NCBI GenBank assembly: GCA_038045765.1
Contig: JBBSXN010000005.1
Location: forward strand, 226,144-290,143
Length of the DNA: 64,000 bases
Source: Nanobdellota archaeon
GTDB lineage: Archaea > Nanobdellota > Nanobdellia > Pacearchaeales > GW2011-AR1
Reading direction: 5' to 3'
Part shown: positions 29,316-53,400 of the stretch, piece by piece
Layout: each line of letters opens with the position of its first letter
How positions within the stretch are numbered: position 1 is the first letter of the stretch
Position numbers and translations under genes: made by a program
The notes under the pieces: model-generated
Database searches by the model: none
What the model saw: only the letters and a program-made list of their open reading frames with translations
Told to the model about the DNA's origin: nothing

Positions 29316-29347
29316 ATGTTTATATATTATATACTGATACTTATCAG

Positions 29348-32300: not shown

Positions 32301-32653
32301 CCGGAACTGGTGGAGAAGGAACAACTACTGGAACTGGTGGTGGAACTACAACTACAACTACAACTGGAACTGGCGGATCAGGTACGACTGAAGCAACTAC
32401 TGGAGGAGTTGTTTGTGCAGATGGATGTTCATTAGAAAGTGGACAGTGCGTTCCTCTTGGATATAGAATTGGTGGAAAATATTGTGATGTGAGCAAGAGT
32501 TTGGTAACTTATAAAGCCGATTCAGCTGATTGTGAAAATAATTTTGAATGTGGAAGTAATGTTTGCGTCTCAAATAAATGTATTGAGGCAGGATTTTTGC
32601 AGAAGATTAGTGATTGGTTTAGTAACCTATTTGCAACATCTTCAGCATCTTAA
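29348..32653 (+). CDS. giant secreted protein (1101 aa), paralogue 2: LamG domain, two TSP1-like 4-Cys modules, MBG/Ig-like domains, Thr/Gly linker, conserved C-terminal Cys module
   Basis: Shared leader MQKRLVNYLFFSFVAVLLLVSVVSAVWWNPSTWF. LamG_3 region (LVAYWKFDE...LRVYNTALTSTQINQVY). Modules ACTSFTYSEWSVCSTLGQQAKTILTRTPDGCTGGSPEALTRSC and TCTSFTYSDWSTCTSAGSQTKTILTSNPSGCSGGTPEALTRSC. YDG/MBG-like segment (LTAIYDGTPKSISVTTNPPGISTIVTYNG...AGSYAVTVTAS). C-terminal CENNFECGSNVCVSNKC. Confidence 0.7.
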   Translation: MQKRLVNYLFFSFVAVLLLVSVVSAVWWNPSTWFNGRGITGNPVASATDYTSNLVAYWKFDEASYSGGSGQVKDYLGFSNGTPVSSPTIVPGLKGNAVRFTGAGGQKILISTTPTKFNLGSFTLSAWVKTSDAGTGRRRIFSQQNSDYYGIALNGNNLECFSSLDFGVTQYNSPSTAVLNNNQWHHVSCVRNTGINKFLLYIDGVNVKNSSITGSSSYAMGAGGISISQYLGGNSEIFTGLIDELRVYNTALTSTQINQVYDFAKPASSAQACTSFTYSEWSVCSTLGQQAKTILTRTPDGCTGGSPEALTRSCTYYDPNRIYVNYTVSSMISPYYLTNAVVNLSYAGASYPCNFISKPTSSFPNYGIYRCNVPRLGQTGIYYTLSSSAPGYAQDIASLGNSFNAGEYTASIILNPLPPTCTSFTYSDWSTCTSAGSQTKTILTSNPSGCSGGTPEALTRSCHPDGGIATASLSGLTAIYDGTPKSISVTTNPPGISTIVTYNGVTTPPTAAGSYAVTVTASPPTLATAPIFTMNTMAALVINKADQTIVFPTISPQVTAVPFGLSATSSSGLPVSFNIQADLVSGSGTIINNVLTATEAGVVTVRASQAGNNNYNPAPFIDKTISVSSPFKTVQIGEWANVGDSIQLAGATLAKVQSISSSSSASFFDNDNVVFHQTTSGGPITGKTFNAISKGIASTHNGPDSNHLPYFEGGINGKFYNVEYRGVTGSTANSPQARLVAIVCTGGDWIGTVSPCTPSGNKTIEWTKSPAYCDSTLAGSVNHPASEVVTCTYVPPVSTPIANSTFLYYIKNQSGASIPGVQYNLKNSTGGVFDDNCIFDVSSGLMCVNLFAGNYLLNVSASNYFSQVLSLSLTQNYRGPNYPNNIITLSGASTGTTTSTIGANVAGCSDTDADAANLGGVDYNERGTFTAPAESSWTVAQRTDYCVSAMRLAEYSCDPAPAGFDYNGVEVDCPGGCSEGRCIGSGTGGEGTTTGTGGGTTTTTTTGTGGSGTTEATTGGVVCADGCSLESGQCVPLGYRIGGKYCDVSKSLVTYKADSADCENNFECGSNVCVSNKCIEAGFLQKISDWFSNLFATSSAS

Positions 32654-32695
32654 CTTATGGAAAATATTTATATATCTGCAAGAAATGTTTCTTTA

Positions 32696-35194: not shown

Positions 35195-35243
35195 AAGACA
35201 GATGATTAATCATAACCTCTAGCTTTAAAAATGGTCTTTTCTT

Positions 35244-36242
35244 TTGTTTTATATGGAAAATGGTAATGAGAAAATAGCTCGTAAGAATTTACTTAGAAAT
35301 GGAGAGAAAGTAGATGGAATTAGTATTAATGGATATAATTTTGATAATGGTGTGGATTATGGTAAGTTAATTGAGAGTTTTTCTAGTACTGGATTTCAAG
35401 CAAGTGATTTTTCTAAGGCAGTTAATATTACTAATCATATGATTGATGCTAAATCAACTATATTTTTAGGATACACTTCAAATATGGTGAGTTCTGGCTT
35501 ACGAGACGTGATAAGATATTTAGTTCAGAATAAAAGAGTAGATATTTGTGTTACAACTGCTGGAGGAATTGAAGAAGATATCATAAAATGCCTTGGTGAT
35601 TTTAAATTGGGAGATTTTAGAGCTAATGGAAAGTTGTTAAGAGAGAAAGGAGTTAATAGGATTGGAAATATATTTGTAAGTAATGAATTGTATGTTAAAT
35701 TTGAAAAGTTTATGAGTGCTGTGTTGGACGAATTGTATGAAATGCAGGTTAAAACTGGTAAAATTGTTAGTCCTAGCGAAATTATTTGGAAAATGGGTGA
35801 AAAGATAGATAATAAAGAAAGTATTTGTTATTGGGCTTGGAAAAATAAAATAAGAATCTATTGTCCTGCTTTGCAAGATGGAGCTATTGGAGATAATATT
35901 TATTTTTCTTCTTTCAAACATCCTAATTTTAAGATAGATATAGTTGAAGATACAAAAAGATTGAATGATAGTACTATTGGACTGAAGAAAAGTGGTGCAG
36001 TAATTTTGGGAGCAGGTGTTGTTAAGCATAGTATATTGAATGCAAATATGCTTAGAAATGGATTAGATTATGCAGTTTACATTAATACTTCTCAGGAATT
36101 TGATGGAAGTGATGCAGGAGCAATGCCGGAGGAAGCAGTTAGCTGGGGAAAGATAACTGCTGGTGCAGAGAGTGTGAAAGTTTATGGTGATGCTACAATA
36201 TTATTTCCATTATTAGTTGCAGAGAGCTTTGCTAAGAAATAG
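35244..36242 (+). CDS. dys: deoxyhypusine synthase
   Basis: TSNMVSSGLRDVIRYLVQNKRVDICVTTAGGIEEDIIKCL is the conserved DHS core. Confidence 0.75.
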   Translation: MFYMENGNEKIARKNLLRNGEKVDGISINGYNFDNGVDYGKLIESFSSTGFQASDFSKAVNITNHMIDAKSTIFLGYTSNMVSSGLRDVIRYLVQNKRVDICVTTAGGIEEDIIKCLGDFKLGDFRANGKLLREKGVNRIGNIFVSNELYVKFEKFMSAVLDELYEMQVKTGKIVSPSEIIWKMGEKIDNKESICYWAWKNKIRIYCPALQDGAIGDNIYFSSFKHPNFKIDIVEDTKRLNDSTIGLKKSGAVILGAGVVKHSILNANMLRNGLDYAVYINTSQEFDGSDAGAMPEEAVSWGKITAGAESVKVYGDATILFPLLVAESFAKK

Positions 36243-36272
36243 TTATTTATAGTGTTTAGTTAATTTATATTC

Positions 36273-36950
36273 ATGCATTTTTCCTTAGTAGTACCAGTTC
36301 ATAATGAAGAAGAAAATATTAAATATTTGTATAAACAGATAAATGATAGTTTGAAAGAATTTTCTTATGAAGTTATAGTTGTGAATGATGGTTCTAATGA
36401 TGGAACTTTATTAGAATTGAATAAAATTAAAGATAAAAAGTGGAAAGTTTTAGATTTGGAGCATAAAGGCAAAGATTATGCTGTTTATGCTGGAATTCAA
36501 AAAGCTAAATCTCAAAATATTGTATTAATGGATGGTGATTTGCAAATTGATGTTAAAGATGTTGTTAATTTGTGGATGGTCTTTAAAAAAAACCAATTGG
36601 ATTGTGTTGTTGGCTGGCGTTTTGATAGGAAAGATGGTTTTGTGAAGAAAGTTTCTTCTTTTGTTGGGAATAGTTTTAATAATTTATTTTTTGGATTAAA
36701 AATAAATGATGCTAATTGTCCTTTGAAGATAATTAATAGAAAATTACTTGTAAATGTTAAATTCTTTAATCATTTTCATAGGTTTATATGTGCTTTAATT
36801 TCTTTGCAAAATGGCAAGATTGAAGAGATTAAAATTAAACATTTACCTAGAAAGTATGGAAAATCGCATTATGGCGTACATAATAGGATTTTTGGTAATT
36901 TGATTAGTTTGTTTAAAGTCAGATTTGGAAGAAGAGAGATATTTGGCTAA
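36273..36950 (+). CDS. GT2 polyprenyl-phosphate sugar synthase-like glycosyltransferase (DPM1/GtrB/AglD-like)
   Basis: LVVPVHNEEENI..., EVIVVNDGSNDGT and LMDGDLQ form a GT-A DxD region. The protein is 225 aa, soluble type. Confidence 0.65.
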   Translation: MHFSLVVPVHNEEENIKYLYKQINDSLKEFSYEVIVVNDGSNDGTLLELNKIKDKKWKVLDLEHKGKDYAVYAGIQKAKSQNIVLMDGDLQIDVKDVVNLWMVFKKNQLDCVVGWRFDRKDGFVKKVSSFVGNSFNNLFFGLKINDANCPLKIINRKLLVNVKFFNHFHRFICALISLQNGKIEEIKIKHLPRKYGKSHYGVHNRIFGNLISLFKVRFGRREIFG

Positions 36951-36960
36951 ATATTTATAT
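36951..36960 (+). promoter_or_regulatory. TATA box (atatttatat) inside the conserved element ggctaaatatttata upstream of surface-protein family member A
   Basis: It lies 22 nt upstream of ATG 36983. The same element ggctaaatatttataaactcgttt occurs at 38061-38084 upstream of member B. Confidence 0.4.
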
Positions 36961-36982
36961 ACTCGTTTTATCTTGATTGGTG

Positions 36983-37999
36983 ATGGCTGTTAAAAAGAGG
37001 GTCGGAGATAATTTAGGATTATATTTATTGTTAGGTGCTTTGGTTCTTGTTGTTTTATTTTATCAACCAGGAGCATTATTGAGTCCAGATTGTGCTGAAG
37101 GCCAAGTTTTGAATGATGCAGGTGTTTGTGAAGATGAATGGATGTCTGGTGATGCTTTTTTATATGATGAAGATGGAAATCTAGTTATCGATATACCTGA
37201 AGAATTTGAGAGTTTTACAGATCCTAGGGACCCAGATGCTTTTAACTTTGGTTCTGAATCTAAAGATTTTGATTTTCCTGAATTTCCCGTAGAATGGGAT
37301 TACCAAGAGGATTTTTATAATGCTTGTGTTGCTGGTGATGTTCCCGATATGGAAGAGAGATGTGGAGATATTGCCCCAATTGAGATAATTCCTCAATGCA
37401 ATCCTTCTCCAGCAGTTCCAGTTGCTAAAATTTATTCTAAAGAAATAACTTTAAATGGAGGGAATGCTTTTCCAGATTCCCGTAAACGAGCAACTATTGC
37501 AGCCGCTGTTGCTGACTTGCAAGGAGAGGCTAATAGAGATAGAACTAATATGATAACTGATTTTGATTGCGAGGGTAGTCCTGCTGAATCTGATATTACT
37601 TGTGAAGTTTTTGATGGTAGAATAAACTATAGAGTTGGTTTAGAGACATCCACACCTCAGAGTAATACTTGTACAAATCCTGGACCATCGACTGCAAGTA
37701 ATCCTATGCATTACGAAACTACTTTTTCTTCAAGTATTGCAGATGATGGTGCCTGTCAGGTAGCGTTGGAAGGACTTGGAAATAATTGGGTAGAGACAGG
37801 GCCTCCTAGTACGTTTAGCTGTCCTAGCGGTTGTGATCCAGCAGGTTCATATGCTTTAGATGTTACGCAAAATGCTGATGGTTGTACTGGTTATGCTACT
37901 AATGATGTTTACTGCGGTCCAAGAGGGGGAAGATTTAGCGGTAAAGTTAAAATAGATCTCTTTGCTTTCTTTACACATGATTGCCGAAGAACTGAGTAA
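36983..37999 (+). CDS. signal-anchored Cys-containing surface protein, mosaic family member A
   Basis: The ORF track uses TTG at 36977. ATG 36983 gives MAVKKRVGDNLGLYLLLGALVLVVLF, parallel to member D. LLSPDCAEGQ and SGKVKIDLFAFFTHDC are shared with member B. Confidence 0.6.
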   Translation: MAVKKRVGDNLGLYLLLGALVLVVLFYQPGALLSPDCAEGQVLNDAGVCEDEWMSGDAFLYDEDGNLVIDIPEEFESFTDPRDPDAFNFGSESKDFDFPEFPVEWDYQEDFYNACVAGDVPDMEERCGDIAPIEIIPQCNPSPAVPVAKIYSKEITLNGGNAFPDSRKRATIAAAVADLQGEANRDRTNMITDFDCEGSPAESDITCEVFDGRINYRVGLETSTPQSNTCTNPGPSTASNPMHYETTFSSSIADDGACQVALEGLGNNWVETGPPSTFSCPSGCDPAGSYALDVTQNADGCTGYATNDVYCGPRGGRFSGKVKIDLFAFFTHDCRRTE

Positions 38000-38097
38000 A
38001 ATTAATTTTCATCTTTCTTTTGCAAATCAATGTCTTAGAACGGCTTAATTTTATTTTTTGGCTAAATATTTATAAACTCGTTTCAGTTTAGAATGTT

Positions 38098-39879
38098 ATG
38101 AGTTTTAAAAGGAGGGCATTGCATAAAAATGCTTGGAAGACTTGGTCTTTATATTTATTAGCAGGATTATTTATTGTTGCGTTTCTCTTTTCACAACAAG
38201 GTGTTTTTTTAAGTCCTGATTGCGAGGATAATGATGATAGTTGTGTTCATGAGGGAGATGAAGATTATATTTCTTGGGAAATTCCTGGAGATGCTTATGA
38301 AGGTGTTCAAGACATAGAAGAGAGTATGAATGATGATCCTGAGACTGAAGATGTTATAGAGGGATTTAAGTTTGGTGGTGATTCTGAAGCACTAGATAAA
38401 GAAGCAGCCGATGCTGCTAAAGAAGCTCAAGAAGATGTTAAAGAATGTGTGGCTGATGCTGATGGAGATCCTGCTAAGCAAAATGAGTGTGGTGAAATTG
38501 CAGCTGCTGCTGGCGGATCTGCTAGTTGTAGTCCTAGTAGTAATCCTTATCCTAAGGTTATAAGAGATTTAGTTACAGTTACTTTTACAGGAGGAATTAC
38601 TGGAGCGCCTTCTGATGAAGCGGTTAAGTCTACTCTTTTACAGAAAGCAGGAGAGCTTAGACAGGAGAATGTAAATGAACAAGAAGCGATAGCTAATGGT
38701 ATGAAATGTAAGGCGTCTACTAAATTTACTAGATGTGAAAAAGAAAATGGAAGAGTTTCTTATTCTATGAAAGTTGAACCACTTAAGAAAAGCGGTGAAT
38801 GTAAAATTCCTAGCGGTTCTGGTGATCAATCTCCAGCTAAGACGGATAAAACTGATTCTTTATCGGCATCAGGTAGCAATGAAGCAGATTGTATAAATAA
38901 ACTTGGAGATAAAGCTAAGGAGTGGGTTCAAGGTCTTAGTTATACTTGTAAGACTGGAAAAATAGGAGCTAATTTCTTTGGTAATGGTGGGACTAATTAT
39001 GGTGAGTGTAAACCTATATATGCTACCTTTGATCTCGATGGAGTTTTTGTTTTATCTCCTGGAAGTTTGGAAGCAGGAACATGTACTGGAAAAGCATCTT
39101 TTACTATTTCTTGTGGTGATGGTCCACTTGTAGAAGGAATTTCAGGAAAAGTTAGAATTTATCTGAAAGGTACATTCACTCATTCTTGTAAACCAATTTA
39201 TGACAAAGAGGCTACTATTGATGGTAGTTCTGGTAGTGGATCTGGTTCAGGATCTGGAAGTGGTGGCAGTAGCGGAGGAGGTTCGAGTGGAGGCACATCT
39301 GGTGGGGGTGGTTCTGCTCCTGAAACTAGTCCTGGAATAAAATCTCCTAGTAGTGATTCTTCAGATAGTTCAGACGCAAATAGTAATTCTGCTAATCCAG
39401 GTAGTGATAGTTCTCTAGCTTCTGGTGATGTTAGTCCATTAACAGATAATTCTAATAGTGCAAATCAAGATAGTAGTAATGATAATTCTAATAGTGCAAA
39501 TCAAGATAGTAGTAATGATAATTCAAACAGTTTAAGTGAGAGTAATGATGCAAATTCTGGTGAATTATCTCCTTTCTTTTCTGCAATTAAAAATGCACTC
39601 CAAGGCCTTAGCGGAGATAGTAAAGATGAAGGTGAGTTGGTGAGCGATAATAGCCAGACCAATTCCCAGAATAGCGATACTTCAAAGTCAAATAGTGCTA
39701 TTAATTTCAATAGCCTTACTAGTGTTAGTAATTCTGATGAAGAGATATTAAGTCCAACGTTAGCTTCAATTAACTATATACTTGAAATTATCAAGGGTGA
39801 AGATACGGAAGTTATAGGTATCTTTCAACCAGTTGAAAAGGCACTTGAAGATTTGCAAGAGTTTTTTGAGGGAAGTTAG
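38098..39879 (+). CDS. signal-anchored surface protein, mosaic family member B (A-like core, G/S-rich and Ser/Asn/Asp-rich repeat tail, conserved C-terminal 45 aa)
   Basis: MSFKRRALHKNAWKTWSLY leader is identical to member C. FLSPDCEDND...SGKVRIYLKGTFTHSC is the A-like core. The tail carries SGSGSGSGSG and DNSNSANQDSSN x2.5. The C-terminus SPTLASINYILEIIKGEDTEVIGIFQPVEKALEDLQEFF is shared with member D. Confidence 0.65.
   Translation: MSFKRRALHKNAWKTWSLYLLAGLFIVAFLFSQQGVFLSPDCEDNDDSCVHEGDEDYISWEIPGDAYEGVQDIEESMNDDPETEDVIEGFKFGGDSEALDKEAADAAKEAQEDVKECVADADGDPAKQNECGEIAAAAGGSASCSPSSNPYPKVIRDLVTVTFTGGITGAPSDEAVKSTLLQKAGELRQENVNEQEAIANGMKCKASTKFTRCEKENGRVSYSMKVEPLKKSGECKIPSGSGDQSPAKTDKTDSLSASGSNEADCINKLGDKAKEWVQGLSYTCKTGKIGANFFGNGGTNYGECKPIYATFDLDGVFVLSPGSLEAGTCTGKASFTISCGDGPLVEGISGKVRIYLKGTFTHSCKPIYDKEATIDGSSGSGSGSGSGSGGSSGGGSSGGTSGGGGSAPETSPGIKSPSSDSSDSSDANSNSANPGSDSSLASGDVSPLTDNSNSANQDSSNDNSNSANQDSSNDNSNSLSESNDANSGELSPFFSAIKNALQGLSGDSKDEGELVSDNSQTNSQNSDTSKSNSAINFNSLTSVSNSDEEILSPTLASINYILEIIKGEDTEVIGIFQPVEKALEDLQEFFEGS
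39445..39530 (+). repeat. 36-nt tandem repeat (gataattctaatagtgcaaatcaagatagtagtaat x ~2.4) encoding DNSNSANQDSSN
   Basis: Seen directly. Copies at 39445-39480 and 39481-39516, then a partial third copy. Confidence 0.7.
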
Positions 39880-41303
39880 TTATCATCTTTTTTATAGAAT
39901 ATAACATAAATATTAGTTTCTTGTATTTCATCTATTTTTATATATTGATCATTTTCTTTTTCAAATATATACTGATTCATTAAAGCGTATGAATTGTATC
40001 TGTCAAAAAAAACTATTGAAGAATCATTAAAATTCTGCTCCTTGATGAGAGATAGATAGAATAATTTATCTTTTACGCATGGAGCGTAAAAACTTAGACT
40101 AGCTTCAGGAATGTCTGTGCTAGTTAGAAATGTTGAATTTGGCCATTTATCGCAGATTTCTTTTAACATAGGTTTCCAATTTTCTCTATCTATTTTTAGA
40201 CTATTTTCATAATATGTTGATAAGTTTGAAGTTATGAACAGAGAAATTATTAATAGAATTAAGATATGAGGTATATATTTATTCCAGTCTCTAGTTTTAT
40301 TGATTGAATAAGAAAGAATAATTATTAATGGGAAGATGGCAAAAGAAAGATATCTGGTTACAAGTATTGGTGTGTAGAAATAATCTATCAGGGATAATAG
40401 TATTATGGGTGTGATAAGGTAGAACAGTGCACTGTTCTTTTCTAGACTTTCTTGTTTTTCTTTAATTAAATGATATATTCCATAAATTACTAGGATAGTT
40501 ATCGCTATTGTTAGAATATTGATTTCTTCAATTTTATAGCTGTTTATGAATGATAGAAATATGCTTCCCAAATTGATTAGGTAGTTTTCTGTCTTACCTA
40601 TCCACAGAATACCTTTTTTGTGAGATATGTTTGTAAAAGCAATACTTACCCATGGAAGATATGATAAAATTATGATGAATAGAGATTTTAGATAGTCTTT
40701 ATTTTTATTATAAATAAACCAGATTATTATTTGGGTTAAAAGTAGTAGAAAACCGAGATAGAGAGTATAAATCAAGGCTATTGTGCTCAATATATATTTC
40801 CATTTATTATTTGATTTTTGGTCTTTTAGGAATATTAAGAAGTAATACCAACTTGCTAGTCCTAAAAGCCAGACTAATGTGTACATCTTTGCTTCTTGGC
40901 TATAATTGATTAGGTACGGCCAGAATGCTCCTAGCAAAGCTGCTAGATATGCAGTTTGTTTATTATTTGTAATTAATTTTGTTAATTTGTATAAATAAAT
41001 TAGTAAAATAGCTCCAAATAGTGCAGAAGGAAATCTAAGAGACCACTCCGATATTCCTATTAGAGATGTCCAAGCTTTTAGAATTAAGTAATACAGTGGA
41101 GGGAAAGGTGAATCTGCTAAATTTGTAAGTGTGTCTAACCAAGAACCAGATATTCTTCCAATAGTCATAAGTTCATCATGCCAGAGACTTGGTGCAGAGA
41201 TTTTGTATATTCTAAGGAGAAAAGCTAATAGGATAATTACTGATAGTAGGATATATTCTTTATTGGTTTTTATGTAATTTAATAATTTATTTTCTTTTTC
41301 CAT
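39876..41303 (-). CDS. GT-C-fold protein mannosyltransferase/ArnT-like glycosyltransferase (PMT_2, GT39/GT83-like), copy 1
   Basis: 475 aa, ~11 TM. The first-loop motif SLWHDELMT is the DE motif. The first ~45 codons are ~85-90% identical at nt level to the 45969 copy. Confidence 0.6.
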   Translation of the reverse strand: MEKENKLLNYIKTNKEYILLSVIILLAFLLRIYKISAPSLWHDELMTIGRISGSWLDTLTNLADSPFPPLYYLILKAWTSLIGISEWSLRFPSALFGAILLIYLYKLTKLITNNKQTAYLAALLGAFWPYLINYSQEAKMYTLVWLLGLASWYYFLIFLKDQKSNNKWKYILSTIALIYTLYLGFLLLLTQIIIWFIYNKNKDYLKSLFIIILSYLPWVSIAFTNISHKKGILWIGKTENYLINLGSIFLSFINSYKIEEINILTIAITILVIYGIYHLIKEKQESLEKNSALFYLITPIILLSLIDYFYTPILVTRYLSFAIFPLIIILSYSINKTRDWNKYIPHILILLIISLFITSNLSTYYENSLKIDRENWKPMLKEICDKWPNSTFLTSTDIPEASLSFYAPCVKDKLFYLSLIKEQNFNDSSIVFFDRYNSYALMNQYIFEKENDQYIKIDEIQETNIYVIFYKKDDN

Positions 41304-41359
41304 CTTAATATCGATACAAATAGCAGAAGATATATAAATAATGTGGCTTATTTTTAATT

Positions 41360-43492
41360 ATGAAGAGGTCTAATAATATTACAGTAAATTCTTCTTGGAA
41401 GAATTGGTTAATTGTTGTGTTGATTGTTGCAATCGTAGTATCTTCTTACTTTGTTTTTTATCAGGATAATATTTATTCTAAGTCTACCACTGGAGCTGTT
41501 CTTTGGCCATGGGAAATATTTGGAGACCCTTGTTATAGTAATCCTGGAGATTTAGATTCAGACGGCGATGGTATACCAGACAATGATGACGACGATGACG
41601 ATAATGATGGAATACTTGATGTTGATGAACCAACAACTGATTCTGATGGAGACGGAACTGAAGATGAAGTAGATACTGATGATGATAATGATGGAACTGA
41701 TGATTCACAAGACAACGATGATGATGGAGATGGAATAGGTGATAACGAAGATACAAGTGACGGAGATAATAATGTAAATGAAAATAGTGGTGATGACGGA
41801 GTTGATGATAATCCTAACGATGATGATACTTATACTATCATTGATGACGAAGTTGATAATTCTGTAAATAATGAGGATACAGATGATGATGGAGTAGATG
41901 ATGTTGTCGATACAGACGATGATAACGATGGAGTACCTGATGGTGAAGAACCTGATAATAGTGATTTAGATGGAGACGGAGAAACAGATGCTATAGATCC
42001 AGATGATGATAATGATGGTGTGGACGATAGCTTTGATAATGACGACGACAATGATGGAATTACTGATGAACAAGATTTAGATAATGATGGAGATGGAGTA
42101 GAAGACAGCTCTGAGGAAGTTACCAATGAGGATGAGGATACGGATGAAGATGGAGTAGATGATTCTGAAGACGTTGATGATGATAATGATGGCGTGAGTG
42201 ATGATGAAGACACAGATGATGATAATGACGGAGTAGATGATGAAGAAGTTGATAATTCAGATACAACTAGTGATTGTGAAGATGGACAATCACTAAATGA
42301 AGATGGTGAATGTGTTAGCGTTATTGATGAAGTATTGGAAGACATATGTAATGATATATTATCAGATTCTTTTTGTGATGGTGGTCTAGAGGAGATTATT
42401 GTAGGTGATGAAGAAGTTGATAATTGTCCAGATGGAACATCTGTTAATGAAGATGGTTATTGTGATGATGATAGCCTTTTAGATGATGTTCTTGATTGTG
42501 TTATCTTAGATGATTGTGATGATGAAATTATTGATGATTGTCCAGATGGAACATCTGTTAATGAAAATGGTGAATGTGAAGATGAGATTACTGATGATGG
42601 TGATTTAGATAACGATGGAATTGAAGATGAAGAAGATGGTGACGATGACAATGATGGAGTATCTGACGAAGAAGATCCCGATGATAATAATGATGGCGTG
42701 GGTGATGAAGAAGCTAATGATGATGAAACGGAAGATGAAGATGAAGAAGAGACGGATGATGAGGAACCAAGTGATACTTGTAAGGATATAGATAACGATG
42801 GCGACGGAGTAAACTCATGTGACGATTGTGACGATAATGATAGTACAAATAAGATAGTAACTGCAGATGCTGATGAAGATGGAATATCTACTTGTGATTT
42901 AGATTGTGATGATAATAGTGAAGATGTGCAAATTACTAAGGCGGATGCCGATTCAGATGGAAAGACTACTTGTGATGGTGATTGTGATGATAATAATAAA
43001 GATGTAAAACCAGGTGCTAGTGAAATGTGTCAAGATAATCTAGATAATAATTGCAATGAATTAGTTGATTGTGCAGATAGTGCTTGCAATGGTTATATAG
43101 TTACGGAAGAAGGATTTGCTATACCTGGTTCTATGTTTGCCCCTCCTAAGAGAGAAGTAGGTATGTGCTGTTCTGGAACACAGGTAGATCATCGATCCGA
43201 TAATAATAATTGCGGATTTTGTGGGAATGTGTGTGCTTCCGATAGATCTTGTAAATTTATATCTATTGCTCCAGGTTGTGTTATAGATAAATGTAAAGCT
43301 CCTACTGGATCAGGTTATCTTACTCAAGCAGATGCTGAGAAAGCTGGTGAAGTTGCTAAATCTAATTTTATCAAAGTATGTACTCTTGCAAAAAATGTTG
43401 ATCTTAGTTATTTTTCTGAGCCTATCTTAGATAATCAAGGTAAAGAAACTGGGCAATCATTCAAAGGTTTCTCTGTAGGCTTTTCTTTTTAG
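41360..43492 (+). CDS. hyper-acidic secreted protein with Asp-rich, thrombospondin-type-3-like (putatively Ca-binding) repeats and C-terminal Cys-rich MopE-like metal-binding motifs
   Basis: N-terminal signal anchor. ~25 repeats of D.DDDNDG..D (e.g. DTDDDNDGTDDSQDNDDDGDGIGDNED). C-terminal motifs CDDCDDNDS, CDLDCDDNSED, CDGDCDDNNKDVKPGASEMCQDNLDNNCNELVDCAD. Confidence 0.6.
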   Translation: MKRSNNITVNSSWKNWLIVVLIVAIVVSSYFVFYQDNIYSKSTTGAVLWPWEIFGDPCYSNPGDLDSDGDGIPDNDDDDDDNDGILDVDEPTTDSDGDGTEDEVDTDDDNDGTDDSQDNDDDGDGIGDNEDTSDGDNNVNENSGDDGVDDNPNDDDTYTIIDDEVDNSVNNEDTDDDGVDDVVDTDDDNDGVPDGEEPDNSDLDGDGETDAIDPDDDNDGVDDSFDNDDDNDGITDEQDLDNDGDGVEDSSEEVTNEDEDTDEDGVDDSEDVDDDNDGVSDDEDTDDDNDGVDDEEVDNSDTTSDCEDGQSLNEDGECVSVIDEVLEDICNDILSDSFCDGGLEEIIVGDEEVDNCPDGTSVNEDGYCDDDSLLDDVLDCVILDDCDDEIIDDCPDGTSVNENGECEDEITDDGDLDNDGIEDEEDGDDDNDGVSDEEDPDDNNDGVGDEEANDDETEDEDEEETDDEEPSDTCKDIDNDGDGVNSCDDCDDNDSTNKIVTADADEDGISTCDLDCDDNSEDVQITKADADSDGKTTCDGDCDDNNKDVKPGASEMCQDNLDNNCNELVDCADSACNGYIVTEEGFAIPGSMFAPPKREVGMCCSGTQVDHRSDNNNCGFCGNVCASDRSCKFISIAPGCVIDKCKAPTGSGYLTQADAEKAGEVAKSNFIKVCTLAKNVDLSYFSEPILDNQGKETGQSFKGFSVGFSF

Positions 43493-43496
43493 ATAA

Positions 43497-43763
43497 TTAT
43501 TTATTAGGAGAGTATTTGAAATAATATGTTTTATTCCCGTAGAACATAGGTCTTAATGAGCTTGTTTCTCTCATTAGTCTTTCTTGTTCTTTTACGAATA
43601 TATCATCTTCTCTCTTTAGTATTTGCTCTCTTTTTACTGGGTCTAAGACAAGAGGTATTCCAAGCAGGCGAGCGTTTGCACATCCTGTTGCGTATAAAGC
43701 ACCTGCTAAAGCAATTGGGGCTAGAATTCTATTTAGTTTGCTTCTTTCCATGTATTTTATCAT
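43497..43763 (-). CDS. hypothetical small protein (88 aa)
   Basis: It lies in an intergenic-size gap. LAPIALAGALYATGCANARLL is a hydrophobic segment. The support is weak. Confidence 0.25.
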   Translation of the reverse strand: MIKYMERSKLNRILAPIALAGALYATGCANARLLGIPLVLDPVKREQILKREDDIFVKEQERLMRETSSLRPMFYGNKTYYFKYSPNK

Positions 43764-43861
43764 AAATATGGATATTTAAATGTTTGTATTTGTTACTTCT
43801 CTATAGTGATATAAATGAATACTTAATGAATATTTATATAGCTTGATAGTTTTATATTAAT

Positions 43862-44512
43862 ATGAGTTTTAAAAGGAGGGCTTTGCATAAAAATGCTTGG
43901 AAGACTTGGTCTTTGTATACTTTAGTAGGTTTGTTGGCTTTCACTCTTTTTTATACTTCTTTTGGGCAAAATCAAGTATTTTTCTCTCCAACTGTGCAAC
44001 AGTTTGAAGATAGAAGTTTAGCTCTTCATACGGAATTTGATAATCTTCAAATACAATTTAATGAAAAGAAAGCAGATTATGTCGCATGTATTACTGATTT
44101 ATCTGATAAGATGTCTAATTTGAACACTAATTTAGATACTTTAGATGAAGAAGAAATTACAGAAAGAAGAGCAGAAATTGCTGCTAAGAATGAGGAGTGT
44201 CAGGCAATTTATGAGGATATAGCTAATAATATTGCTTCATCTGTTTTACTTGCTCCATGCGATAGGTTACCAGCTCTTGCTAATGAATTGTATTCTGAAA
44301 TTCAAGAACGATTTAATGAAGAAGACGCATTAGTAGAAAGTGAAGATGAGAATGCTGATCCTCAGACTCTTGAACAAATTGTAGATTTACGTGACAATGT
44401 TGCTTTGTTAGAGCTTAATATGAATGAATTTTGTCAAACTTTAAGGGGTTTTCCAGATCCTTGTACTGCTCTTGGAAATACAGAATATAATGGAAGATCT
44501 CAAAATCCTTAA
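43862..44512 (+). CDS. signal-anchored surface protein, mosaic family member C (short, coiled-coil-like core)
   Basis: Leader MSFKRRALHKNAWKTWSLY, with upstream DNA identical to member B. The core has YVACITDLSD, ECQAIYEDIANN and DPCTALGNTEY, paralogous to member D (YQACITNLIG, ERCQDLYNEANA, DPCTALSSQGE). Confidence 0.6.
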   Translation: MSFKRRALHKNAWKTWSLYTLVGLLAFTLFYTSFGQNQVFFSPTVQQFEDRSLALHTEFDNLQIQFNEKKADYVACITDLSDKMSNLNTNLDTLDEEEITERRAEIAAKNEECQAIYEDIANNIASSVLLAPCDRLPALANELYSEIQERFNEEDALVESEDENADPQTLEQIVDLRDNVALLELNMNEFCQTLRGFPDPCTALGNTEYNGRSQNP

Positions 44513-45969
44513 TTAATTCTTTTTAATATATTTGCTTTTAATGATCCTTCTTGGATTGTTTTGTTTAGATAATACCTGTCTTTTGTATTGTTTTTGAGAT
44601 CTCTTAATTGTAAAGTTGCTTGAGGTGCTAGACGAGAGAGGAAAATTAGTTTTTCATAAGAATAGTTTGCAGTTAGTTTATCTGAAGGTATGTCTGTTAT
44701 GAAAAGAGCAGGGATTATTACTTTTGGAAGGCAAGCCCCATAGTAATGCAGTATTTTTTCAGGGCTTGAAATTCCATTGATTATAAGCGTTTTATTATTT
44801 ATTTCGTTACATGTTTCATTGAAGAAGGAGCGCCAGTCTTCTCCTTCTATTTTTAACTGGTTTTGATAGTATGGTGATAAGTGTATAGTGAAAATGGATA
44901 TTGTCAAGATGATTAAAATTATCATTGAGAGATACTTACTCCATTTATTTGTGTAGTTTATTGATAAAGCTATTAAAATTATTAATGGAATGTGGATAAA
45001 GCCTATGTATCTTGTTACTAAGATAGGGGTTGATAAAAAGTCTATTAGTATTATGAGAAGTAATGGTAGGAAAGTCAGTAATAATATATATGTTTTTTTC
45101 CAAGAATTAATTTTATCTTTATTTTCTTTTATTAGAAATAGTGTTGTTATGCCTGATAAGATTAGTATTGTGTAAATAGTTAATTCTAGAGAAGTATTTG
45201 TTCTGAAAATATCTGAAAATATCTCTTTTAAGGCTTGGAGATAGTTATTAGTTTGTAATACCCATTCAATTCCTGACTTGTGAGATATGTTTTGAGAAGC
45301 TATTCTTATCCAGGGTATGTATAATAAAATTATTGATAAAAGAACAATAATCATTTCTTTTATTGGTTTTCTTTTTGAATAGAGTAAGAAGCAGGTTAAT
45401 TGAGTTATGAGGATGAGAAAACCGAAATATAGTGTGTATATCATTAATGCGGTAAATAGCGTATATAAGATAATATTTCTTTTATCTGGATTTTCTATAA
45501 AATTAAGAAAATGGTAGAATGAAGCTATAGATAAAAACCAGACCATTGAATACATTTTTGCTTCTTGAGCATAGTTAATTGCATATGGGAAAATGGCTAA
45601 TATAAATGAAGAGATTAATGCTGTTTGTTTGTTAAATAGCTTTTTTGTTAACAAGTATAAATAAGGTATAGTGAGTGTGGAAAATATTGCTGAGGGGAAT
45701 CTTAATGCAAATTCTGAGAAACCAAATATATTTGTCCAGAATTTCGTTAATATATAATATAGTGGTGGGAATGGAGAGATTAATAGTGTGGTGAGAGTGT
45801 CTGAGAATGAGCCTTGTAATCTATAGAAAGTCATTAATTCATCATGCCAGAGACTTGGAGATGAAATTTTATAGATTCTTAGTATAAAAGCTAATAGGAT
45901 AATTACTGATAGTATGATATATTCTTTATTGTTTTTTATATAGTTTAATAGTTTATTTTCTTTTTCCAT
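44509..45969 (-). CDS. GT-C-fold protein mannosyltransferase/ArnT-like glycosyltransferase, copy 2
   Basis: 486 aa. MEKENKLLNYIKNNKEYIILSVIILLAFILRIYKISSPSLWHDELMT matches copy 1. Confidence 0.6.
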   Translation of the reverse strand: MEKENKLLNYIKNNKEYIILSVIILLAFILRIYKISSPSLWHDELMTFYRLQGSFSDTLTTLLISPFPPLYYILTKFWTNIFGFSEFALRFPSAIFSTLTIPYLYLLTKKLFNKQTALISSFILAIFPYAINYAQEAKMYSMVWFLSIASFYHFLNFIENPDKRNIILYTLFTALMIYTLYFGFLILITQLTCFLLYSKRKPIKEMIIVLLSIILLYIPWIRIASQNISHKSGIEWVLQTNNYLQALKEIFSDIFRTNTSLELTIYTILILSGITTLFLIKENKDKINSWKKTYILLLTFLPLLLIILIDFLSTPILVTRYIGFIHIPLIILIALSINYTNKWSKYLSMIILIILTISIFTIHLSPYYQNQLKIEGEDWRSFFNETCNEINNKTLIINGISSPEKILHYYGACLPKVIIPALFITDIPSDKLTANYSYEKLIFLSRLAPQATLQLRDLKNNTKDRYYLNKTIQEGSLKANILKRIN

Positions 45970-46225
45970 CTTTTTCTTTATTGGCTATAATAAGATTTCT
46001 TAAGTAAATAAATAGGCCTGTTGACTGGCCTAGAATAAATATTGGATCTTTGATGTGAATTGCATAAGCTAAAAGGCCTAATCCTCCTGCTAGACTAAGA
46101 TACCAGAATGCTAACGGTATCGTTACTTTTTTGTTTTTTTCAGTTACTATCCATTGAACTAAAAATCTGGAGAAGAAACATAATTGTGCTAATAGGCCTA
46201 GAACTATCCAGAAGTTTATGTTCAT
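45953..46225 (-). CDS. LAB_N (lipid-A-biosynthesis N-terminal domain)-type small membrane protein
   Basis: WIVLGLLAQLCFFSRFLVQWIVTEKNKKVTIPLAFWYLSLAGGLGLLAYAIHIKDPIFILGQSTGLFIYLRNL matches the PF07578 consensus. It overlaps the start of the GT-C gene by 17 nt. Confidence 0.6.
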   Translation of the reverse strand: MNINFWIVLGLLAQLCFFSRFLVQWIVTEKNKKVTIPLAFWYLSLAGGLGLLAYAIHIKDPIFILGQSTGLFIYLRNLIIANKEKDGKRK

Positions 46226-46301
46226 GAATATGTTAAATTGTTTTGGTTTAAATAGTTTATATTGACTGAATATTTATATAGTTTGATTATTTAAATTAAT
46301 A

Positions 46302-47438
46302 ATGAGTGTTAAAAAGAGTTTTGGTAAGTATTGGGCTTTGTATGTTTTAATTGCTGTTTTGGTGGTGTTTTTATTTTTTAAGTTGAATGATGGTTTTATA
46401 ACTGGTAATGCCTCATTGAGTTCAGATAGTTTAAGTGACATTATTACTTCTAGAACTACTTTACAATCTAGTTTTGATAGTCTTAAGACTCAATATGATG
46501 ATAAGAAAGGCAATTATCAGGCTTGTATTACTAATTTAATAGGATTATATGCAGATACTGATGCTAGAGAGGATCCTGCTCATCAACAGGCAATATCTAC
46601 CGAGAATGAACGTTGTCAGGATTTATACAATGAGGCAAATGCATTATCTTCTAATTGTAACCAACTTGAAGGACAATATACTCATCTTCTAGAACGAACA
46701 TCTGAATATTGGTCTAATCTAAATAATTATTTTAATCAATTAAGTCAGAGCGATATTAATTTTGAAAGTGCTAAAAATGAAAAGGATACAGCTTATCAAT
46801 TTATTAATCAATTAGAGAGAGATCATAATTCGATATTATATTATTGTCAGAAGATTTTATCTTTAAGAGATCCTTGTACTGCACTTAGTTCGCAAGGAGA
46901 AGTTGAGACTGATACAGATTATGATAGACTAAATGATATATCTAATAATGTTAATCCTGATACTGAAGCTCAAGTTATAATTGATAGTTCTAATCCTGAT
47001 TTTGTTTCAGATAGTAATCCTTCTCAAAGTTCAGGTCAATTACCTGCACAAAATAATTTAGATGATTCTCAAGAATTAGATGTTGTTGATAATGGCGATG
47101 ATAGCCAGAATGTTGTTGAAAAGTTATTTAGTAATTTATTTAATTCTAATGATGACGTGAGTGATGATGATGCAAATAGTGCGAGTGATTCACTTAATTC
47201 TGATAATACTCAGACTAATTCTCAAGATAGTGATACTTCAAATTCAAATAATAATTTTAATTTCAATAGCTTCATTAGCTCCAGCAGTTCTAATGAAATC
47301 ATACCAAGTCCAACTTTAGCTTCAATTAATGATGTGCTTGAGATTATAAAGGGTGATGACTCAGAAGTTATAGATATCTTTCAACCAATTGAAAAAGCAC
47401 TTGGAGATTTACAGAATTTCTTTGATAATCTTAGCTAG
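46302..47438 (+). CDS. signal-anchored surface protein, mosaic family member D (C-like core, Ser/Asn/Asp-rich tail, conserved C-terminal 45 aa)
   Basis: MSVKKSFGKYWALYVLIAVLVVF. A TATA box lies at 46271-46280. The C-terminus SPTLASINDVLEIIKGDDSEVIDIFQPIEKALGDLQNFF matches member B. Confidence 0.6.
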   Translation: MSVKKSFGKYWALYVLIAVLVVFLFFKLNDGFITGNASLSSDSLSDIITSRTTLQSSFDSLKTQYDDKKGNYQACITNLIGLYADTDAREDPAHQQAISTENERCQDLYNEANALSSNCNQLEGQYTHLLERTSEYWSNLNNYFNQLSQSDINFESAKNEKDTAYQFINQLERDHNSILYYCQKILSLRDPCTALSSQGEVETDTDYDRLNDISNNVNPDTEAQVIIDSSNPDFVSDSNPSQSSGQLPAQNNLDDSQELDVVDNGDDSQNVVEKLFSNLFNSNDDVSDDDANSASDSLNSDNTQTNSQDSDTSNSNNNFNFNSFISSSSSNEIIPSPTLASINDVLEIIKGDDSEVIDIFQPIEKALGDLQNFFDNLS

Positions 47439-47459: not shown

Positions 47460-47491
47460 TTATTAGCTGTTTTCCACATTAATTCAAAGTA
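47460..47491. repeat. 32-bp direct repeat copy 1 (ttattagctgttttccacattaattcaaagta)
   Basis: An exact 32/32 match to 48664-48695. It overlaps the stop codon of the MNT gene. Confidence 0.8.
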
Positions 47492-48062
47492 AACTTTTAC
47501 CATTTATTAGAATATCTTTTATAAATGGATCTGATTTGTTTTCGTTTATATCTTTAAAAGAGAAGAAGTGTAATTGAATATCTTTCTCGTTATTTTTTGA
47601 TATTTTTTTTATTAGATTCATTATACCTTTCTTTGTTTTTTCTATATTTTTAACTTTATCTTTTAAGATTATTGCGATATCTATGTCTGATTTTTCTAGG
47701 TATATAAGTTTGGCATAGCTCCCAAATAATAGAACTGAGTCAATTCCATCAATTTTTGATAAGTTATGTGAAATTTGATTCAAAATATTGAATATATTAT
47801 GGGGTAGATTAAAATATTTATATTCTTTTGATATAATATCGAATATCTCTTTATTTTTTTCTATTTCAAAGTTTAAACTGAACAAACCTTTCTTTTCGCT
47901 TATTAACTTTAAAGAATTTAATTTTTGCAGAGTATTATCTAATGGAGAGTTATACATTAAAGTCTTATTTTGTATCTCTTTTCTTTTGTATCTTGAGCCA
48001 GGACTAATTAAAAATAAAGATAATACCTTCACTAAGCTTTGTTCAAATAAATTAGATATCAT
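47484..48062 (-). CDS. minimal nucleotidyltransferase (MNT), second HEPN/MNT pair
   Basis: VLLFGSYAKLIYLEKSDIDIAIIL matches the GS...DxD motif. Confidence 0.6.
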   Translation of the reverse strand: MISNLFEQSLVKVLSLFLISPGSRYKRKEIQNKTLMYNSPLDNTLQKLNSLKLISEKKGLFSLNFEIEKNKEIFDIISKEYKYFNLPHNIFNILNQISHNLSKIDGIDSVLLFGSYAKLIYLEKSDIDIAIILKDKVKNIEKTKKGIMNLIKKISKNNEKDIQLHFFSFKDINENKSDPFIKDILINGKSLL

Positions 48063-48540
48063 TTTGTATATATTTATTAACTTTTTCTATATAAGGTTCA
48101 ACTGTATTTTTAAGAAAAGATGAAGATCTTTCCTTATATTTTTCTTTCATGAATTTTGTACCAGTATAATATTGAGCTTTTTGTCTTTCTTCTCTTGCCT
48201 CAAAAAGATCTGCAGCCATCTCTTCAAATTCTTTAAAACCTATTTTTAATAGTTCTAAAATATCTTTATCTTTTGTTATTTCTTCCATTATTTTTATTAC
48301 ACTTTTATGGACTTTTGCATCTACCTTTATATTAAATTTTTTAGCAAGAAAGAGCTTAGTTATATCATGCATTGCATAGTAACCAGAGATAATACTCCAA
48401 CGTGGGAATTTAATAAAATTATATTTACAGTGTTCTAGATTCTCTTTATATGCCTCTGAGAAGAAATTTGTATATCTCTCAAGCTCAGTTTCAACTATTT
48501 TATTTATAATTCCTTCTTTTAGATAATTCTCTATAATCAT
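48052..48540 (-). CDS. HEPN-domain protein, second HEPN/MNT pair
   Basis: 162 aa, helical, with a YYAMHD segment. It overlaps the MNT gene by 11 nt. Confidence 0.45.
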   Translation of the reverse strand: MIIENYLKEGIINKIVETELERYTNFFSEAYKENLEHCKYNFIKFPRWSIISGYYAMHDITKLFLAKKFNIKVDAKVHKSVIKIMEEITKDKDILELLKIGFKEFEEMAADLFEAREERQKAQYYTGTKFMKEKYKERSSSFLKNTVEPYIEKVNKYIQNDI

Positions 48541-48659: not shown

Positions 48660-49373
48660 TTAATTATTAGCTGTTTTCCACATTAATTCAAAGTATAGCT
48701 TATATGAGTCTGCGATGTCTTTGTTTTTTATAAGAATTGCTATTGGTTCTTTTGCCCAGAGGATAATAGCTACTTTATCTTTGTAGATGTTTATTGCTAA
48801 GGGATTGGCGTATTTTTCTTCTATATATCTTATTTCTGCTAAGGGAATACGTTTTATCTTTTTATCGTGTGTGATTATTCTTGTTTTTATCTTATTTTTC
48901 TTTCTTTTTTGATCATACCATTTAAAGTAGAATTGTAATGTGTTGTATGCTTGGCTATTGGCTCCAAGAATAAGAATTTCTTTTGAGTTTAATTGGTCTT
49001 CAAATATATTTTTTAGAGCTTGTTTTCCTTTGTAAAATAGCGTTTCTTCTTTTTCTTTCTTTTCGTCTAGCTTTTGTTTTAATTCATGAACTATTGGAAG
49101 CAAGAGAGCTTCCTTTTCTTGAAGGTTTTCTAATAGTTTGTTTGGATTTGTGGCTGAAAATATTCTCCGGTTGTTTTTTAACATATAGCCTATAAGACCT
49201 TTTTGAATGAGCATTTCTGTAATGTCATATACTGTTCTTCTATGAAGGCCAGTTAGTCTCGATATTCTTCCGGCTAAATTAGCGCCGTTATTTACTAATG
49301 CTAAGTATACTTTAACTTCATTATCTGTTAAACCTGAATCTTTTAGTTGTTGGAACATCTTGAAATTAAGCAT
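48660..49373 (-). CDS. TrmB-family transcriptional regulator
   Basis: N-terminal wHTH GLTDNEVKVYLALVNNGANLAGRISRLTGLHRRTVYDITEMLIQKGLI, and a C-terminal TrmB_C-like domain. Confidence 0.65.
   Translation of the reverse strand: MLNFKMFQQLKDSGLTDNEVKVYLALVNNGANLAGRISRLTGLHRRTVYDITEMLIQKGLIGYMLKNNRRIFSATNPNKLLENLQEKEALLLPIVHELKQKLDEKKEKEETLFYKGKQALKNIFEDQLNSKEILILGANSQAYNTLQFYFKWYDQKRKKNKIKTRIITHDKKIKRIPLAEIRYIEEKYANPLAINIYKDKVAIILWAKEPIAILIKNKDIADSYKLYFELMWKTANN
48664..48695. repeat. 32-bp direct repeat copy 2; here it encodes the C-terminus (..ELMWKTANN*) of the TrmB-like regulator
   Basis: Exact match to 47460-47491. Confidence 0.8.
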
Positions 49374-52815: not shown

Positions 52816-52873
52816 CTTTTCTCTTTTTACAAACTAAGAAGATTAAAAAAGCTGGATATTTATAGTTAATTAT

Positions 52874-52945: not shown

Positions 52946-52985
52946 TTTTGGTAAGATTTAATAATAAACATTAACTAGGTAATCT

Positions 52986-53399: not shown

Positions 53400-53400
53400 T

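Follow-up and report, generated by a model that had tools for sequence, protein, structure and literature searches.

In Borrelia burgdorferi, genes of the OspE-OspF-Elp (Erp) group reportedly carry a near-identical promoter and leader in front of unrelated mature lipoproteins, and their mosaicism is said to have been ascribed to recombination. Genomic island 1 of Haloquadratum walsbyi is reported to differ between co-occurring lineages in surface glycoprotein and glycosylation genes, to owe its diversity to homologous recombination, and to have purifying selection acting on most of its genes (Martin-Cuadrado et al. 2015, PMC4535781). A hypervariable module with immunoglobulin (Ig)-domain genes in Thermococcales, in which a secreted or surface protein is accompanied by hypervariable neighbours, has been interpreted as a system of conflict or self/non-self recognition (PMC8416519). 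Here, we describe an island of candidate surface proteins in a metagenome-assembled genome of a nanoarchaeon (Nanoarchaeota, DPANN) from Hainich groundwater. The window, that is, the whole stretch of 64,000 nucleotides (nt) that was analyzed (G+C content of about 30%), lies on a chromosomal contig of 468 kb, and the island within it contains five genes for anchored proteins, named A, B, X, C, and D, interspersed with genes for a GT2 glycosyltransferase, a LAB_N membrane protein, and PMT_2-type GT-C glycosyltransferases.

We consider that this island has been diversified by homologous recombination and gene conversion on short cassettes, on an evolutionary or population time scale and not by a programmed switch (probability of roughly 0.7). 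In the mechanism proposed here, short conserved 5′ and 3′ modules would serve as portable homology for crossovers, and homologous recombination together with gene conversion, between paralogues and between strains of the same aquifer, would swap promoters, leaders, cores, and tails and delete or duplicate the genes in between. One such crossover, in 32 identical nt of the B and C leaders, would have removed the B core, one GT-C gene (GT-C1), X, a small gene (s88), and the C promoter from a strain in the neighbouring well H41. The island proteins may be involved in host contact or act as viral receptors, and the variation would be kept because of such a role.

Modules shared by the five genes

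The anchored-protein genes and their promoter cassettes are located as follows (window coordinates).

36945-36982, + strand: A-type promoter cassette ggctaaatatttatatactcgtttt, with the TATA box at 36954-36961, 21 nt 5′ of the ATG
36983-37999, + strand: gene A, 338 amino acids (aa), with a type-a signal anchor (aa 1-36), a Cys hairpin, and a 14-Cys core of family 1
38057-38171, + strand: B promoter and type-b leader cassette, in which 38119-38150 is a perfectly repeated stretch of 32 nt
38098-39879, + strand: gene B, 593 aa, with a type-b leader (aa 1-42), a core of family 1 (aa 43-372), a linker, and a tail
41360-43492, + strand: gene X, 710 aa, acidic and Asp-rich, with a signal anchor, an Asp-rich repeat region, three Cys hairpins, and a Cys-rich C-terminal domain
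43829-43935, + strand: C promoter (C/D type) and type-b leader cassette, in which 43883-43914 is the second copy of the 32-nt stretch
43862-44512, + strand: gene C, 216 aa, with a type-b leader and a helical core of family 2 with five conserved Cys
46302-47438, + strand: gene D, 378 aa, with a type-d leader (aa 1-30), a core of family 2 (aa 41-200), a linker (aa 206-330), and a tail

Each protein thus combines a TATA promoter and a signal anchor with a disulfide-rich core, drawn from at least three unrelated families, an optional linker, and an optional two-helix tail of 45 aa. In B, the linker is rich in Ser, Gly, Asn, and Asp (aa 373-548, nt 39214-39741) and contains a tandem repeat of 2.4 units of 36 nt, and the tail follows at aa 549-593 (nt 39742-39876); the tail of D occupies aa 331-378 (nt 47292-47435). 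Gene A corresponds to AABW82_04655 of the "Nanoarchaeota archaeon" genome at NCBI, and contigs in the European Nucleotide Archive (ENA) that are named Hain_H43 hold identical genes.

Pairwise comparison of the proteins by blastp and of the DNA by blastn revealed no uniform divergence along any pair; similarity was local to the core, the leader, or the tail. A matched B with 27.6% identity over 381 aa (E 1.6e-19), and C matched D with 28.0% over 211 aa (E 5e-15). The similarity between B and C was confined to the N-terminus (58% over the first 50 aa) and that between B and D to the C-terminus (69.6% over the last 79 aa), and blastp found no further significant pairs among the island proteins. 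At the DNA level, the tails of B and D were 79% identical over 224 nt (39646-39869 versus 47202-47425), the 5′ cassettes of B and C were 82.6% identical over 109 nt (38065-38171 versus 43829-43935), and the upstream regions of A and B (80%) and of C and D (82%) matched over 61 nt each. Within the coding leader of B and C, 53 of 54 nt are identical from the ATG, and the two genes are unalignable afterwards.

These comparisons bear on an earlier description made from the letters of the window, the sequence-only reading, which had proposed a mosaic family of four genes with a promoter, a leader, and a C-terminal tail in common and with exchanged cores. All four open reading frames (ORFs), A to D, are present at the positions given there, and we recovered the Cys-containing core of A and B, which has 14 Cys, the core of C and D, which is helical, and the low-complexity linker with its near-identical end of 45 aa in B and D. 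Several details require adjustment. The N-termini of B and C are identical, as proposed, but over 19 aa and not 18, and the near-perfect match in the DNA starts at -1, not at -10, and extends to +54, interrupted only by one synonymous mismatch at +21. A tail is common to B and D, but A has neither linker nor tail, and C lacks both as well. The family also has to be enlarged to five members by X, because its anchor is of the same kind (WKNW followed by a hydrophobic helix) and because it has in common with A the hairpin C-x-[DE]-G-[QT]-x-[LVP]-N-x4-C, which occurs once in A and three times in X.

The promoter claim likewise stands in part. Each of the five genes has a TATA box at positions -29 to -22, that is, 21-22 nt 5′ of the ATG, and a TATA box at a like spacing precedes many unrelated genes of the window; the 10-mer AATATTTATA occurs nine times in the window versus two expected occurrences. 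The TATA box is therefore largely the generic promoter of this genome and not a mark of the family. Only the extended flanks are family-specific, and these are of two types, one for A and B and one for C and D. The A-type extended sequence was also found 5′ of B, of the A-like gene (A′) of a related locus (L005), and of genes 223 and 87a of another (L006). The spacing between TATA box and ATG suggests that the island mRNAs are probably leaderless.

A second family with a shared leader, unrelated to the A-D set, was observed elsewhere in the window. It comprises three large secreted proteins (1095, 1101, and 832 aa) that start with MQKR..YLFFSFVAVLLLVSVVSAVWWNPNTWFEGRGITG, at 15075-15200, 29348-29473, and 32696-32821. 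Between the genes at 29348 and 32696, identity is 90% in the initial 126 nt and drops to background (38%) beyond them. Leader sharing therefore seems to be general in this genome.

Related loci and the crossover between strains

The island is framed by the deoxyhypusine synthase gene on the left and by genes for a TrmB-family regulator, a protein of 159 aa, and GatB on the right, and these flanks are 81-87% identical in nucleotide sequence between species and 92-100% between strains. Five arrangements were found between them.

L012 (most distant): GT-C and LAB_N only, both reverse; no leader-bearing genes
L005: GT2, A′, GT-C (reverse), LAB_N (reverse), D′; two leader-bearing genes
H41 strain (L013-L016): GT2, A, C′, GT-C (reverse), LAB_N (reverse), 204; three leader-bearing genes (L014)
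L006/L008/L011: GT2, 131, 223, 87a, X′, s88′ (reverse), GT-C (reverse), LAB_N (reverse), 216, 203; six leader-bearing genes (L006)
Window: GT2, A, B, GT-C1 (reverse), X, s88 (reverse), C, GT-C2 (reverse), LAB_N (reverse), D, nucleotidyltransferase pair; five leader-bearing genes

Gene content thus differs between the window, with five leader-bearing genes, and its relatives, which carry 0, 2, 3, or 6. GT-C2, LAB_N, GT2, and TrmB are 78-98% identical across the loci; the leader proteins are 33-55% identical or have been replaced, and the orthologues of A (P0003 and P0002) are 54-55% identical to it.

Leaders, cores, and tails were found in different combinations in these genomes. The type-a leader, MAVKK[RS]VGDNLGLYLLLGALVLVVLFYQPG, is 81-94% identical across three kinds of protein, namely those with core 1 (A and A′ of L005), those with a coiled-coil core 3 (L6_223/P0005 and P0004), and the truncated L6_87a. 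The core 3 proteins P0004, P0005, and L6_223 have leaders that are 91-94% identical to that of A, and the DNA homology between window gene A and gene 223 of L006 stops at 37089, exactly where the leader ends. The type-b leader (HKNAWKTWSLY) stands before core 1 in B and P0002 and before core 2 in C and its H41 counterpart C′. The tail follows core 1 in B and core 2 in D and in a 380-aa protein of L005, and is absent from C, L6_216, and other core 2 proteins; it also occurs in L6_87a, which consists of the type-a leader, the Cys hairpin, a linker, and the tail. Additionally, the region at 15406-15697 of L006, 5′ of gene 203, contains duplicated pieces of GT-C (76 nt) and of the LAB_N 5′ end (124 nt) together with the divergent promoter (130 nt), and is a scar left by a segmental duplication, through which a promoter was gained.

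Two observations concern single modules of these loci. Gene 87a of L006 (10726-11080; also in L007 and L008) has an in-frame TAG in place of a Gln codon of A (FY-stop-PG versus FYQPG) and is then open through the hairpin, linker, and tail, so that two readings suggest themselves, a pseudogene of recent origin or a gene of the B type that has lost its core. A stretch of 90 nt after the D core (NPDTEAQVIIDSSNPDFVSD; 46940-47028) is 91% identical to 8145-8234 of L005, in a gene whose protein is about 33% identical and between conserved flank genes with about 80% nucleotide identity; it could represent a further mini-module, either exchanged or held under strong constraint.

A crossover could be mapped between two strains of the same aquifer, whose arrangements occur in wells H41 and H43. 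The H41 sequence aligns with the window over 28107-38171 and resumes at 43829, with the overlap lying within the leader. In a three-way alignment, the H41 gene C′ matches B exactly throughout the upstream sequence and up to and including the diagnostic A at position +21; from the diagnostic G at position +54 onward, it matches C exactly. These two sites place the crossover inside the perfect 32-nt repeat TTGCATAAAAATGCTTGGAAGACTTGGTCTTT (38119-38150 and 43883-43914). The segment of 5,764 bp between the two leader repeats (38119-43882), which comprises GT-C1, X, and s88 together with the core, linker, and tail of B and the promoter of C, is present in the window (H43 type) and absent in H41. 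Since the outgroup L006 has homologues of X and s88 as well as a B-like remnant, a deletion in the H41 lineage is the parsimonious interpretation, and the C core would thereby have come under the B promoter.

On the left of the junction (37098-38130), identity between the strains is 100%, on the right it is 81-99%, and synonymous divergence (dS) rises from 0.025 in A to 0.35-0.42 in GT-C2, LAB_N, and TrmB. This drop in flank identity and the jump in synonymous divergence make it probable that the exchange took place with a divergent strain. D may have been lost in this exchange as well, for in its place H41 has an unrelated gene of 204 aa that is an orthologue of L6_203. C′ (P0007) is a distinct allele of C, with 92.6% identity (7.4% amino acid differences) and an indel of four codons. 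The divergence between the strains is mostly under purifying selection, and positive selection on C was considered but is unsupported (dN/dS, the ratio of nonsynonymous to synonymous divergence, of 0.28).

Beyond the island, comparison of 28107-56526 with L014 revealed a patchwork over about 28 kb, with blocks that are 100% identical (28107-33500 and 37098-38130) and others that are 5-25% divergent, and dS between the Hainich strains varied from 0.025 to 0.42 between adjacent genes. This patchwork indicates frequent homologous recombination in the DPANN population. At 52832-53400, the tRNA-Arg(TCG) gene (52873-52946) is inverted in H41 and the adjoining 137-aa gene (52986-53399) is missing; a gene of 136 aa, comparable to the latter, is present in L005. 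Between D and TrmB, a nucleotidyltransferase gene (PF01909/PF18765; PADLOC PDC-S09/PDC-M05A) and its 162-aa partner (47484-48540) occur in the window strain only, and on either side of this insert stands one copy of a direct repeat, perfect over 32 nt, that derives from the 3′ end of TrmB, ttattagctgttttccacattaattcaaagta (47461-47492 and 48663-48694).

Predicted proteins, neighbouring genes, and competing explanations

All members begin with a basic N-terminus that is followed by one hydrophobic stretch of about 19-23 aa. The core of family 1 (A and B) has 14 conserved Cys and is mixed alpha/beta in an AlphaFold2 model of low confidence (predicted local distance difference test, pLDDT, of 49.8). 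The core of family 2 (C and D) has five conserved Cys and forms four long helices in D (residues 44-186, pLDDT above 90), and the D model as a whole consists of a transmembrane helix, this four-helix core, a disordered linker, and a helical hairpin tail. The linkers of D (205-340) and B (373-548) are predicted to be disordered and contain 22-32% Ser and 13-18% Asn, and the last 45 or so aa of B and D are predicted by AlphaFold2 to form a helix-turn-helix. The signal anchors, the conserved Cys, and a depletion of N-x-S/T sequons suggest that A, B, X, C, and D are extracellular proteins anchored in the membrane at the cell surface, with the tail presumably distal to the membrane.

The five leader proteins of the window contain five sequons, versus about 31 expected; B has none (9.9 expected) and D has two (9.7 expected), despite their Asn- and Ser-rich linkers. 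In fifteen relatives from L005, L006, and L014, two sequons were found versus about 31 expected. The depletion extends to window proteins with a classical Sec signal (the two large upstream proteins at 29348-35194), and cytoplasmic and polytopic membrane proteins of the window are not depleted. These results suggest selection against N-glycosylation of exported proteins.

The A-D families are near-orphan and lineage-specific. None of the modules matched Pfam, NCBIfam, PADLOC, or PDB sequences, and when the A/B core, the C/D core, and X were compared with PDB by sequence and by profile, nothing was found. A Foldseek search of PDB with the D model returned only generic helical bundles (best E 0.03, not significant). 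An exhaustive profile search with the C/D core and the tail recovered nine proteins with E of at most 1e-3 among 1.84 billion cluster representatives, and a search with gene A recovered three full-length relatives among 5.8 billion. Word-index searches with full-length B and with C, D, and the tails gave at least 8,000 low-complexity or coiled-coil candidates, none of them informative, and scans of genome collections with GT-C2 and with the GT-C alignment found no relatives but only a distant GT-C of Patescibacteria. A defence-system reading was also rejected, as PADLOC gave no match for A-D or X.

The tails of B and D matched the viral family phrog_6259 at profile positions 14-51 of 74 (E 1e-6 and 4e-7), and neither reversed-sequence controls nor the more divergent tails of relatives matched this family. 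Searches of IMG/VR and of GenBank phages with the tail and with the A/B core brought up no related viral contig or phage, and a viral origin of these modules was rejected.

The anchored-protein genes have the following neighbours in the window.

36273-36950, + strand: GT2 glycosyltransferase, polyprenyl-phosphate sugar synthase-like (Pfam PF00535, E 7e-24)
39876-41303, - strand: GT-C1, a PMT_2 GT-C glycosyltransferase paralogue (Pfam PF13231, E 7e-13)
43497-43763, - strand: s88, an ORF for an 88-aa protein with a lipobox-like LYATGC, paired with X, likewise in L006
44509-45969, - strand: GT-C2, a PMT_2 protein and the conserved GT-C of the locus (Pfam PF13231, E 1e-18)
45953-46225, - strand: small membrane protein of the LAB_N type, which partners GT-C2 and is conserved with it (Pfam PF07578, E 5e-31)

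GT2 forms the left edge of the island, with its stop codon adjoining the TATA box of gene A; its nucleotide sequence is about 85% conserved in L005 and L006, and the gene is absent in L012. GT-C1 is convergent with B and 45% identical to GT-C2, and was missing from every related locus examined, with its context confirmed by the independent contig L019. GT-C2 is 78-80% identical in L005 and L006 and 92.6% identical in the H41 strain, and the LAB_N protein is 90-98% identical in relatives. The homologue of X is L6_516, and s88 is 47.7% identical to L6_87b.

GT2 (PF00535), LAB_N (PF07578), and PMT_2 (PF13231) are encoded together and form, at the level of domains, a three-component polyprenyl-phosphate set. 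GT2 showed NCBIfam similarity to PgfS, ArnC, PpgS, and AglJ below the cutoff, and because the NCBIfam scores lie far below the curated cut-offs, orthology to named glycosylation enzymes cannot be claimed. The Ser-rich linkers contain no N-sequons and are encoded beside the PMT_2 genes, and they may be O-glycosylated by the adjacent PMT_2 GT-C enzymes.

A more far-reaching interpretation, which we regard as doubtful, is that the cassettes are standard "adaptors" of combinatorial surface display, with which DPANN archaea, and perhaps viruses, would trade cores to retune the recognition of hosts and viruses. Expression and anchoring would then be provided for any inserted core, which would be carried on a stalk that may be O-glycosylated and would receive a helix-hairpin cap for docking. 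The suggestion of viral participation derives from the phrog_6259 match of the B and D tails. If true, the island would help to set which hosts an episymbiotic archaeon can use.

It is distinctly unlikely that the leaders are class III (type IV pilin-like) signal peptides and that the proteins are filament subunits or tip adhesins. Pilins typically combine a conserved N-terminus with C-terminal domains that vary, and the leaders do have a short basic N-terminus and a small residue (G, A, or S) ahead of a hydrophobic helix of about 20 aa. However, among the 15 leaders inspected, the [KR]-[GA] motif before the hydrophobic stretch is not conserved, with V, F, N, S, or G as the -2 residue, and neither is the small residue at -1, which changes from G to D in L6_216. 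Moreover, the cores (Cys-rich of 300 aa, helical bundle of 160 aa, and acidic of 650 aa) are unlike the globular domains of pilins, and no pilus-assembly genes adjoin the island. Inspection of the leaders led us to reject this reading.

Very little also speaks for programmed antigenic or phase variation, in which an expression site and a cassette system, comparable to pilE/pilS, vlsE, VSG, or Mycoplasma vsa/vlp, would switch the surface protein within a clone. Variable middles between conserved 5′ and 3′ ends, and the short tandem repeat in the B linker, would be expected in such a system, and the sequence-only reading had invoked cassette exchange by analogy with variable surface antigens. 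However, no promoterless donor cassettes were found, since all five genes are complete ORFs with a correctly spaced TATA box of their own. A scan of the region found no inverted repeats beyond chance-level AT-rich matches, and no recombinase, integrase, invertase, or reverse-transcriptase domain was detected in the ORFs of the island, to which this search was confined. Cassette-type conversion through the core is impossible because the cores are non-homologous, and the variants are fixed differences between strains of different wells, with 2-40% synonymous divergence around them. A target of a diversity-generating retroelement was rejected as well, given that no reverse-transcriptase domain lies in or next to the island and that the repeats are whole modules with all types of mismatch, as was an invertible promoter or other phase variation after scans for inverted and tandem repeats. 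The lack of promoterless cassettes, inverted repeats, and recombinase or reverse-transcriptase domains, together with the lack of any dN/dS above 1, argues against a programmed switch. The antigen analogy is therefore valid for the outcome, variable surface proteins, and not for the mechanism; what the sequence-only reading proposed about modular recombination among signal-anchored, probably surface-located proteins is borne out by the independent assortment of leaders, cores, and tails in relatives and by the crossover mapped to 32 nt.

Without any recombination, the leaders and tails could be targeting or processing signals under strong purifying selection, attached to cores that have diverged beyond recognition from one ancestor. 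The common leader design (basic N-terminus, W/Y-rich edge, hydrophobic helix, and a PG-x-LLSP or GFITG junction) would fit this explanation, and the second, unrelated set of large secreted proteins with a near-identical signal peptide points to a constraint on leaders. Nevertheless, we consider it highly improbable, because the synonymous sites of B and C are identical over 54 nt, with one difference, and the sequences are then unalignable, because the core folds differ (an alpha/beta Cys-rich fold in a low-confidence model versus a four-helix bundle), because leader types and core families are combined differently among genomes, and because the H41/H43 junction is a direct recombination product.

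That an assembler jumped between the repeated leaders, or that strains were mixed during binning, is hardly credible: although the metagenome assemblies are of low coverage (3-7 in the contig names) and Logan contigs built with k=31 end exactly at the 32-nt repeat, such breaks are expected at a true repeat, the longest exact repeat is only 32 nt and the final k-mers of SPAdes-type assemblies are longer than that, three replicate ENA assemblies and one Logan run each recovered the H41 arrangement independently, independent contigs cover the H43 arrangement piece by piece, namely L021 (A-B junction), L019 (B tail-GT-C1-X-s88), L002 (C-GT-C2-LAB_N-D), and L001, C′ of H41 is a distinct allele and not spliced H43 sequence, and the A/B, C/D, and B/D similarities lie within single genes and do not depend on the assembly.

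Several points weigh against diversification of the island by recombination as we propose it. Part of the conservation of the leaders at the protein level could come from functional constraint and not from recombination. Between the strains, dN/dS is below 1 everywhere, with a value of 0.28 for C and a local maximum of about 0.46 in codons 46-95. L012 retains GT-C and LAB_N in the absence of any leader protein or GT2, from which it follows that the leader proteins are not the sole substrates of GT-C. The model of the A/B core was judged unusable for a fold search, and the comparison rests on a handful of genomes.

Comparison with known systems

DPANN archaea depend on cell contact, and the proteins that make this contact are largely unknown. 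The locus offers candidate surface proteins that are orphan, disulfide-rich, and variable between strains, and that are encoded beside glycosylation genes, in an uncultured lineage of Nanoarchaeota. It also affords a view, at the level of nucleotides, of how a minimal genome might diversify its surface without dedicated machinery, with homology blocks in leaders and tails that can be as small as 32 nt sufficing for the exchange of promoters and domains and for the loss of 5.8 kb. Neighbouring wells of this intensively studied aquifer hold the two natural variants, whose dynamics and selective value could be traced in the metagenome and metatranscriptome time series that already exist. The anchored-protein families are all new, and a limited literature search found no earlier description of an island of this type in DPANN archaea.

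Three-component glycosylation systems consist of a GT2 synthase, a small membrane protein, and a GT-C enzyme, as in GtrA/B/C, ArnC/ArnT, and AglD/AglR/AglS of Haloferax. The same set of domains is encoded beside A-D, with the difference that GT-C and LAB_N persist in L012 without GT2 and the leader proteins. The Thermococcales module is similar in being an archaeal locus with a surface protein and hypervariable neighbours; here, however, Pfam detected no Ig domains, the architecture is another one, and there is no evidence of toxin or immunity functions.

In the architecture of single genes, the "upstream homology box" genes of Borrelia are the closest counterpart, by analogy only. As in the Erp and Elp genes, near-identical upstream and leader sequences precede unrelated cores, both in B and C and in the type-a leader of A compared with L6_223 and P0004. 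The island differs in its archaeal, TATA-box, and probably leaderless promoters, in its chromosomal location, and in having an additional shared module at the C-terminus. In addition, the Borrelia proteins have lipobox leaders and are encoded on cp32 prophage plasmids, whereas the A-D leaders contain no Cys lipobox and look like uncleaved anchors, and Pfam and PHROG searches found no sequence homology to the Erp-type families.

The flexible cell-surface islands represented by genomic island 1 of H. walsbyi are the closest in kind. The nanoarchaeal island is very small, at only about 2-11 kb, and belongs to a DPANN genome that is itself reduced; with the exception of the nucleotidyltransferase pair, mobile elements play no part in it, and its proteins show no homology to halobacterial S-layer or halomucin-type proteins. 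Furthermore, its recombination anchors lie within the island genes themselves, in the promoter-leader and tail modules, and not in the flanks only. What the two islands have in common is conserved flanks around differing content, a variable cargo of envelope (here by predicted location) and glycosylation genes, diversification through homologous recombination, and evolution mostly under purifying selection.

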